Shown piece after piece: positions 426 to 622 of a DNA stretch of 1,176 nucleotides. The DNA comes from a phage, in the sequence record OR846245.1; one strand, given 5' to 3'. The notes beneath the pieces are model-generated. The model was given only the letters and a program-made list of their open reading frames with translations, did not search any database and was not told the DNA's origin. The translations under genes and the position numbers were made by a program. Numbering within the stretch: position 1 is the first letter of the stretch; each line of letters begins with the position of its first letter.

Positions 426-439
426 CGATATATCTAAAT
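426..439. promoter_or_regulatory. Candidate PadR-type (YqjI/NfeR) operator, copy 1: cGATATATCTAAAT with an 8-bp perfect palindrome GATATATC (427..434)
   Basis: The 13-bp GATATATCTAAAT (427..439) is repeated exactly at 610..622. It lies 24-36 bp upstream of the yqjH start codon, around the likely transcription start. The dyad symmetry fits a dimeric winged-helix repressor. Confidence 0.4.
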
Positions 440-482
440 TAAAGTTTTAAATGATAATGATTGTTAATCAGTAAAAATGCAA
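438..482 (-). promoter_or_regulatory. Candidate sigma70 promoter region for yqjH; two alternative -35/-10 assignments
   Basis: Reading the minus strand, option A is TTAACA (462..467), an 18-bp spacer, then TTTAAT (438..443). Option B is TTGCAT (477..482), a 17-bp spacer, then CATTAT (454..459). Both overlap the Fur-box-like site. The sequence alone cannot choose between them. Confidence 0.3.
452..470. promoter_or_regulatory. Fur-box-like site (TGATAATGATTGTTAATCA)
   Basis: Positions 453..461 (GATAATGAT) match the first 9 nt of the canonical 19-bp Fur consensus GATAATGATAATCATTATC exactly. The flanking heptamers TGATAAT and TTAATCA form an imperfect inverted repeat. The site overlaps the candidate yqjH promoter, and E. 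coli yqjH is known to be Fur-repressed. Confidence 0.45.
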
Positions 483-578
483 CTGTTTTTTGATAGTGTT
501 CTGGCAACGCGTCGCTAACTATAACCTTAGGATAAAATGTTATAAATTAATAGATTATATCAAAAATGGCTTTTACCC

Positions 579-606
579 TTGCTAAAACCCATCATTTAGA
601 TATAAA
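579..606 (+). promoter_or_regulatory. Candidate sigma70 promoter for yqjI: -35 TTGCTA (579..584), 16-bp spacer, -10 TATAAA (601..606)
   Basis: Hexamers match the consensus at 4/6 (-35) and 5/6 (-10) with acceptable spacing. The predicted start near 613-615 falls inside the operator-like palindrome 607..620, which would fit autorepression. Other AT-rich hexamers nearby make this assignment tentative. Confidence 0.35.
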
Positions 607-622
607 TTAGATATATCTAAAT
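607..622. promoter_or_regulatory. Candidate PadR-type (YqjI/NfeR) operator, copy 2: 14-bp perfect palindrome TTAGATATATCTAA (607..620) within the repeated GATATATCTAAAT (610..622)
   Basis: Perfect dyad symmetry centred between 613 and 614. It shares the 13-bp motif with copy 1 and sits between the candidate -10 and the yqjI ribosome-binding site. Confidence 0.45.

Follow-up and report, generated by a model that had tools for sequence, protein, structure and literature searches.

We consider it very probable that the two copies of the 13-bp sequence GATATATCTAAAT in the nfeF-nfeR (yqjH-yqjI) intergenic region of the window, i.e. the whole stretch of 1176 nucleotides that was analysed, are the cores of the NfeR (YqjI) operator sites I and II in their Salmonella form, and that the full repression model attached to these sites applies here. 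In this assignment the repeat, its statistics, the gene identities, the conservation and a third half-site were observed by us, and repression of nfeF and of nfeR itself as well as its relief by nickel are taken from the literature. An NfeR/YqjI operator pair is already known from Escherichia coli, and what is new are small refinements. An initial annotation made from the letters alone had correctly identified a regulatory element that is real and known from experiments, and the NfeR/YqjI operator model of E. coli is hereby transferred to Salmonella. The refinements are a definition of the half-site, TTAGATATA, of which site I carries two and site II carries three; the observation that perfection of the palindrome is not what selection keeps; and the testable suggestion that the distance between the operators and a central bend site may matter.

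The initial annotation had assumed that the flanking genes encode a PadR-type regulator and a reductase as its partner, and this is borne out by Pfam domains, by alignment to nfeF and nfeR and by protein identity. The nfeF product is a siderophore-interacting FAD-binding reductase (Pfam FAD_binding_9, E = 1.7e-35). NfeR contains the Pfam PadR domain (E = 3.8e-14), is 71% identical to E. coli NfeR and 98% identical to Salmonella enterica YqjI/NfeR, and its Cys/His-rich N-terminus is present in the window (MMQNQHEGCCKNQDHKHDGCC...). The full-length window aligns with ~70% identity to annotated nfeF/nfeR (yqjH/yqjI) in 5424 of 5426 complete E. coli genomes, and the nfeF-nfeR intergenic region is found near-identical in an assembly of Salmonella enterica serovar Reading. 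From the latter match and the 98% identity of NfeR we conclude that the window is the Salmonella enterica nfeF-nfeR control region. The pair of a yqjI-type PadR gene and a yqjH-type reductase gene occurs in 8 further loci. The nfeR gene begins with adjacent ATG codons at 635 and 638, preceded by the Shine-Dalgarno sequence AGGAGG at 627-632; the corresponding GAAGG of nfeF is the complement of 410-414. A search of the window against Rfam found no RNA family, and the nearest solved structures to NfeR are distant PadR relatives only (E = 5e-7). The Cys/His-rich extension of NfeR (window 635-820) varies in length by genus, with a difference of 8 residues to E. coli, and NfeR homologues range from 164 to 280 aa with a nearly invariant winged-helix part. 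One predicted protein of 244 aa (P0079, on a 1314-bp ENA contig) carries both a FAD_binding_9 and a PadR domain and matches the NfeR of the window with 99% identity along 62% of the query. A faulty assembly or gene call across the divergent pair is its probable origin.

Within the intergenic region of 231 bp (72% A+T), GATATATCTAAAT is found exactly at 427-439 and at 610-622, both times on the + strand and with a start-to-start distance of 183 bp. If up to three mismatches are allowed, the window holds 5 matches (0.23 expected), a number reached in 0 of 200 shuffles. In 2000 dinucleotide-preserving shuffles of the intergenic region, a direct repeat of at least 13 bp occurred in 0.2%. Copy 1 contains an 8-bp palindrome (GATATATC, 427-434) and copy 2 lies inside a perfect 14-bp palindrome (TTAGATATATCTAA, 607-620); the duplication and the palindromes in each copy, as described in the initial annotation, are thus confirmed. 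The 14-bp palindrome alone is unremarkable, since 5.6% of the same shuffles contain one that is at least as long.

The half-site TTAGATATA occurs four times, at 429-437 (-), 596-604 (+), 607-615 (+) and 612-620 (-), and together with one match carrying a single mismatch this amounts to 5 matches, compared to 0.27 expected. At site I the copy at 429-437 overlaps a second half-site, TACGATATA (424-432, +). At site II the half-site at 596-604, absent from the initial annotation, lies 11 bp from the next one, and copy 2 is therefore part of a 29-bp element, ATTTAGATATA-N7-TATATCTAAAT. Besides the 14-bp palindrome, site II includes a perfect inverted repeat with arms of 11 nt and a gap of 7 nt. The recognition unit is probably a half-site close to TTAGATATA. 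A weak half-site at 556-564 (TTTGATATA) was dismissed, as it is not conserved, even within Salmonella. The features of the region are listed in Table 1.

Table 1. Features of the nfeF-nfeR control region (positions in the window; strand given where assigned)
Feature	Position	Strand	Description
nfeF (yqjH), 5' part	1-403	-	NADPH-dependent ferric-chelate/siderophore reductase; start codon is the complement of 401-403
Operator site I, TACGATATATCTAAAT	424-439		contains copy 1 (427-439); imperfect palindrome
Fur box block, AAATGATAATGATTGTTAATC	449-469		overlaps predicted nfeF -10 and spacer
Predicted nfeF promoter	454-482	-	-35 TTGCAT (complement of 477-482), 17-nt spacer, -10 CATTAT (complement of 454-459)
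IHF-like element, AATTAATAGATTA	545-557	+	12/13 match to WATCAANNNNTTR; putative function
Predicted nfeR promoter	579-607	+	-35 TTGCTA (579-584), -10 TATAAA(T) (601-607); -10 inside site II
Operator site II, ATTTAGATATAAATTAGATATATCTAAAT	594-622		contains copy 2 (610-622); three TTAGATATA half-sites
nfeR (yqjI)	635-1176	+	PadR-family repressor with Cys/His-rich N-terminal extension; cut by the window end

Both promoters were placed by conserved hexamers, which are weak matches to the consensus; a simple consensus promoter scan of the window returned one unrelated match and none of these hexamers. The spacing between site I and the GCAA block of the nfeF -35 element is constant throughout the 20-species alignment described below, and in 18 of the 20 species the TTG of the nfeR -35 element precedes the site II core by 31 bp. 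Transcription would start near 446 (- strand) for nfeF and near 613-615 (+ strand) for nfeR. Site II would then extend over the predicted nfeR -10 element and start (roughly -20 to +8), and site I would occupy approximately +8 to +23 relative to the predicted nfeF start, on the downstream side of the Fur box and presumably within the polymerase footprint. According to the initial annotation, each copy lies just upstream of the ribosome-binding site of one gene, where a repressor would block initiation. The position holds for both genes, as copy 1 begins 12 nt upstream of the GAAGG of nfeF and 4 nt separate the end of copy 2 from the AGGAGG of nfeR. A common geometry at the two promoters does not, with site II on the predicted -10 element and start and site I downstream of both. 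The copies sit by the ribosome-binding sites, yet the action is on transcription.

Within the Fur block, 13 of 15 positions (452-466) agree with the 7-1-7 Fur consensus TGATAATnATTATCA; there are 6 mismatches to the 19-bp consensus, to which no match within 3 mismatches was found in the window. For E. coli yqjH, a cluster of Fur sites of about 100 bp has been predicted at -59 (Chen et al., PMC2189734), and the block at 449-469 corresponds to this cluster.

In E. coli NfeR (YqjI) represses nfeF and nickel relieves the repression, and deletion of nfeR in Klebsiella pneumoniae raises nfeF mRNA 85-fold (PMC7981267). Autoregulation of the PadR type combined with repression of the partner gene, as proposed in the initial annotation, is supported by these reports from E. 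coli and Klebsiella, by the gene identities and by the conservation of the sites. The window shares with E. coli the orthologous flanking genes and one site per divergent promoter; GATATATCTAAAT on the nfeF side and AGATATAAATTAGATATATCTAA on the nfeR side are identical base for base, as is the Fur block beside site I. Sites I and II of the window thus appear to match the published E. coli sites (Wang, Wu & Outten 2011, J Bacteriol 193:563; Wang et al. 2014, J Bacteriol 196:3199), and the only inverted repeat common to both E. coli promoters is the repeat studied here. Over the intergenic region 78% of the aligned columns are shared, the E. coli region being about 45 bp longer. The differences concern the left arm of site I (TACG in the window, TCAG in E. 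coli), the site spacing (183 bp in the window compared to 217-230 bp in Escherichia, with the cores 230 bp apart in K-12) and the centre of the region, where the window has a motif resembling the IHF consensus and Escherichia a REP element. The REP-type palindrome between the sites is a feature of E. coli and not of the whole family: the block GCCGGATGCGGCG...CCGGCCTAC of Escherichia was found neither in the window nor in any locus outside that genus. Some Escherichia lineages also carry a third GATATATCT, located 148 bp upstream of site II, which the window lacks.

Purified E. coli YqjI reportedly binds inverted repeats in both promoters, and its footprint is said to be longer at site II (yqjI) than at site I (yqjH), which would be explained by the three half-sites at site II. 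The two sites are said to lie nearly 200 bp apart and both to be required for full repression of either promoter, cooperating rather than acting separately, which does not support the graded control of the two promoters considered in the initial annotation; shortening of the region or mutation of the REP element reportedly disturbs regulation. That the binding sites in the yqjH-yqjI intergenic region communicate is stated in the title of Wang et al. (2014), as it appears in the reference list of PMC7981267. Full-text searches of the literature, both with the motif string and with descriptions of the YqjI operator, gave no usable result.

To assess conservation we collected orthologous loci by a genome scan (Salmonella diarizonae and arizonae, six Citrobacter species and several Escherichia) and via the contigs of protein homologues (Lelliottia, Leclercia, Phytobacter, Huaxiibacter, Pseudenterobacter, Citrobacter amalonaticus and another member of the Enterobacteriaceae), which gave an alignment of 20 species from 8 genera. 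In all 20 species, GATATATCTAA of site I, GATATAAATTAGATATATC of site II and AAATGATAATGATTG of the Fur-type block are invariant, the first of these also in the metagenome set. Further invariant islands in this alignment are the GCAA of the nfeF -35 element, a T tract and the TTG of the nfeR -35 element. The central 64-67 bp between the islands show a between-genus similarity of 0.59, which is practically that of shuffled DNA (0.55). Scanning metagenomes with the invariant 19-mer gave 120 stretches; counting metagenomes and genomes together, 102 distinct intergenic sequences carry the Fur block and keep both sites. Conservation of the motif in orthologous intergenic regions, a check suggested in the initial annotation, was thus found. 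For site II, part of this conservation could stem from the -10 element, the motif being very A+T rich with TATA-like strings. In one low-coverage metagenome contig with the enterobacterial version of the region (L092), site I reads ACGATTATATCTAAAT, with a one-base insertion in the core; this is likely a sequencing error, as the downstream nfeR reading frame also looks disturbed.

The alignment speaks against the view, put forward in the initial annotation, that better symmetry sets copy 2 apart from copy 1. T618 is replaced by A in Lelliottia, Leclercia, Phytobacter, Huaxiibacter and Pseudenterobacter as well as in the commonest metagenome variant, so that the perfect 14-bp palindrome is broken in five genera. 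What is invariant across the alignment instead is the upstream half-site at 596-604. In addition, site I itself occurs in a common variant, ATAGATATATCTAAA, whose symmetry exceeds that of the Salmonella sequence. Taking these three observations together, the sites differ in the number of half-sites (three compared to two) and not in symmetry.

In distant organisms the motif was found in two metagenome contigs of high G+C. In the first (L133, 61% G+C), a site II-type TTCGATATAAATTAGATATATCTAAAA is followed after 59 bp by a site I-type TTCGATATATCTAAAT (7455-7545). This operator pair precedes a yqjI-like PadR gene, after which comes a SIP-domain ORF, and the winged-helix region of the PadR protein is 51% identical to NfeR of the window and keeps SHGYELIKAIE. 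In the second (L061, 67% G+C), the 19-mer and a second TAGATATATCGA are located directly upstream of a SIP/FAD_binding_9 reductase gene (4140-4205, - strand). Because the surrounding DNA has 61-67% G+C, base composition cannot account for these A+T-only matches. The motif goes together with this family of regulators and reductases, as expected of a cognate operator. About 11 further matches to the invariant 19-mer, in genomes of 25-37% G+C, were discarded as chance occurrences, being single and located inside unrelated DNA. A further locus of 46% G+C (L079) contains GATATAAATTAGATATATCTTCTGATATATCTTAAAAT.

The duplicated motif might merely be the basal sequence of two divergent sigma-70 promoters (-10-like TATA strings and UP-like DNA), duplicated by similar needs. 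Indeed, the predicted nfeR -10 element TATAAA(T) falls inside site II, the region is A+T-rich, and palindromes of 14 bp are not rare in its shuffles. However, the invariant blocks of 11 and 19 bp go far beyond a hexamer, site I lies downstream of the conserved nfeF -35/-10 pair, an exact 13-bp repeat is hardly ever produced by shuffling, and the 19-mer with a second palindromic copy recurs beside yqjI/SIP genes in DNA where base composition is no explanation. We therefore regard this explanation as very improbable. Binding of the motif by a regulator other than NfeR, either Fur or a nucleoid protein (H-NS, Fis or IHF), appears just as improbable. It would fit the Fur regulation of nfeF, for which the Fur site cluster of ~100 bp has been predicted in E. 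coli (PMC2189734), and the attraction of nucleoid proteins by A+T-rich curved DNA; but the motif is unlike the Fur consensus and the best Fur-like block is a separate one (449-469), the motif co-occurs with genes for yqjI-type PadR proteins and SIP reductases in distant lineages, and palindromic half-sites fit a dimeric winged-helix protein.

Still far less credible is a small MITE-like mobile element between the genes, with the copies as its terminal inverted repeats. The copies can be read as a 15-nt inverted repeat (93%) flanking 161 bp, but each copy is itself palindromic, hence the inverted-repeat reading is automatic. Moreover, the interior carries the conserved Fur box and both promoters, the arrangement is stable in 8 genera although the interior has diverged to saturation, and no multi-copy family was found, the non-orthologous 19-mer matches being the single chance ones in DNA of 25-37% G+C.

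For the NfeR operator pair, the following mechanism can be proposed. NfeR bound to site II would exclude RNA polymerase from the nfeR promoter, resulting in autorepression, and NfeR bound to site I, just downstream of the nfeF -10 element and start, would repress nfeF. The nfeF gene would be under double negative control, with Fur sensing iron and NfeR sensing nickel; nfeR would be held off by NfeR alone. Nickel on the Cys/His-rich N-terminus would lower the DNA binding of NfeR, so that both genes become derepressed. The two sites may in addition be bridged by a DNA loop, with the central IHF-like bend assisting. Here we infer the promoter positions, the looping and any role of IHF.

With regard to looping we compared the core-to-core distances in metagenomes and genomes. 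They fall into classes of 173-175 bp (n = 4), 178 bp (n = 1), 181-187 bp (n = 72, 66 of them 183-185 bp), 217-220 bp (n = 13) and 229-230 bp (n = 11). Two of the length changes amount to 10 and 11 bp, i.e. about one helical turn (174 compared to 184 bp, and 219 compared to 230 bp). A strict helical-phase rule was nevertheless not adopted, given that the main class itself spans 181-187 bp, one lineage has 178 bp and there are only about three independent length changes. Exactly 65 bp separate the start of the IHF-like motif from the G of the site II core downstream of it. At this offset an exact WATCAANNNNTTR is present in 5 of the 20 species, and the mean over 9 lineages is 1.0 mismatch, compared to at least 3.2 at every other offset; the chance of at most one mismatch to WATCAANNNNTTR is 0.002 per position. 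Escherichia is without the motif.

The conserved spacing and the fixed IHF-like motif suggest that the sites are bridged by a DNA loop. More tentatively, and with considerable doubt, operators, Fur box and IHF-like bend site might act together in a single looped repression complex, with selection on its geometry. This possibility derives from the central DNA having diverged to saturation while the distance is mostly kept at 183-185 bp, from the two length changes of about one helical turn, from the IHF-like motif at 65 bp with a REP element in its place in Escherichia, and from the retention of the two-site design next to yqjI/SIP genes in distant proteobacteria of high G+C.

Two-operator systems that form loops are lac (O1/O3), gal (OE/OI, with HU) and ara (O2/I1). 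The window resembles them in having two separated operators at a conserved distance, with a candidate site for an architectural protein at a fixed position in between. It differs in that each operator sits on its own promoter and a spacing variation of a few bp is tolerated; looping, moreover, is here a suggestion drawn from sequence comparison. The canonical PadR operator, e.g. that of Bacillus subtilis PadR, is ATGT-N8-ACAT, for which no match within one mismatch was found in the window. Both B. subtilis PadR and NfeR combine a palindromic site with a dimeric winged-helix repressor of itself and of a neighbour gene. However, the NfeR operator is unrelated in sequence, its half-sites overlap or abut, with three of them at site II, and a metal bound by the Cys/His tail at the N-terminus takes the place of the phenolic acid as effector.

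In the Galleria model, NfeR has been connected with the virulence of Klebsiella (PMC7981267); a clear definition of its operator could therefore help to predict the NfeR regulon in pathogens. Two minor elements of the intergenic region were also observed. At 486-497 of the window, a conserved T tract and GATA(T/G) lie upstream of the nfeF -35 element. At the equivalent place some Escherichia lineages (L001, 1996-2010; L147, about 4590) have the third GATATATCT, which in K-12 reads GATATGTCT. It may represent an auxiliary or decaying half-site.
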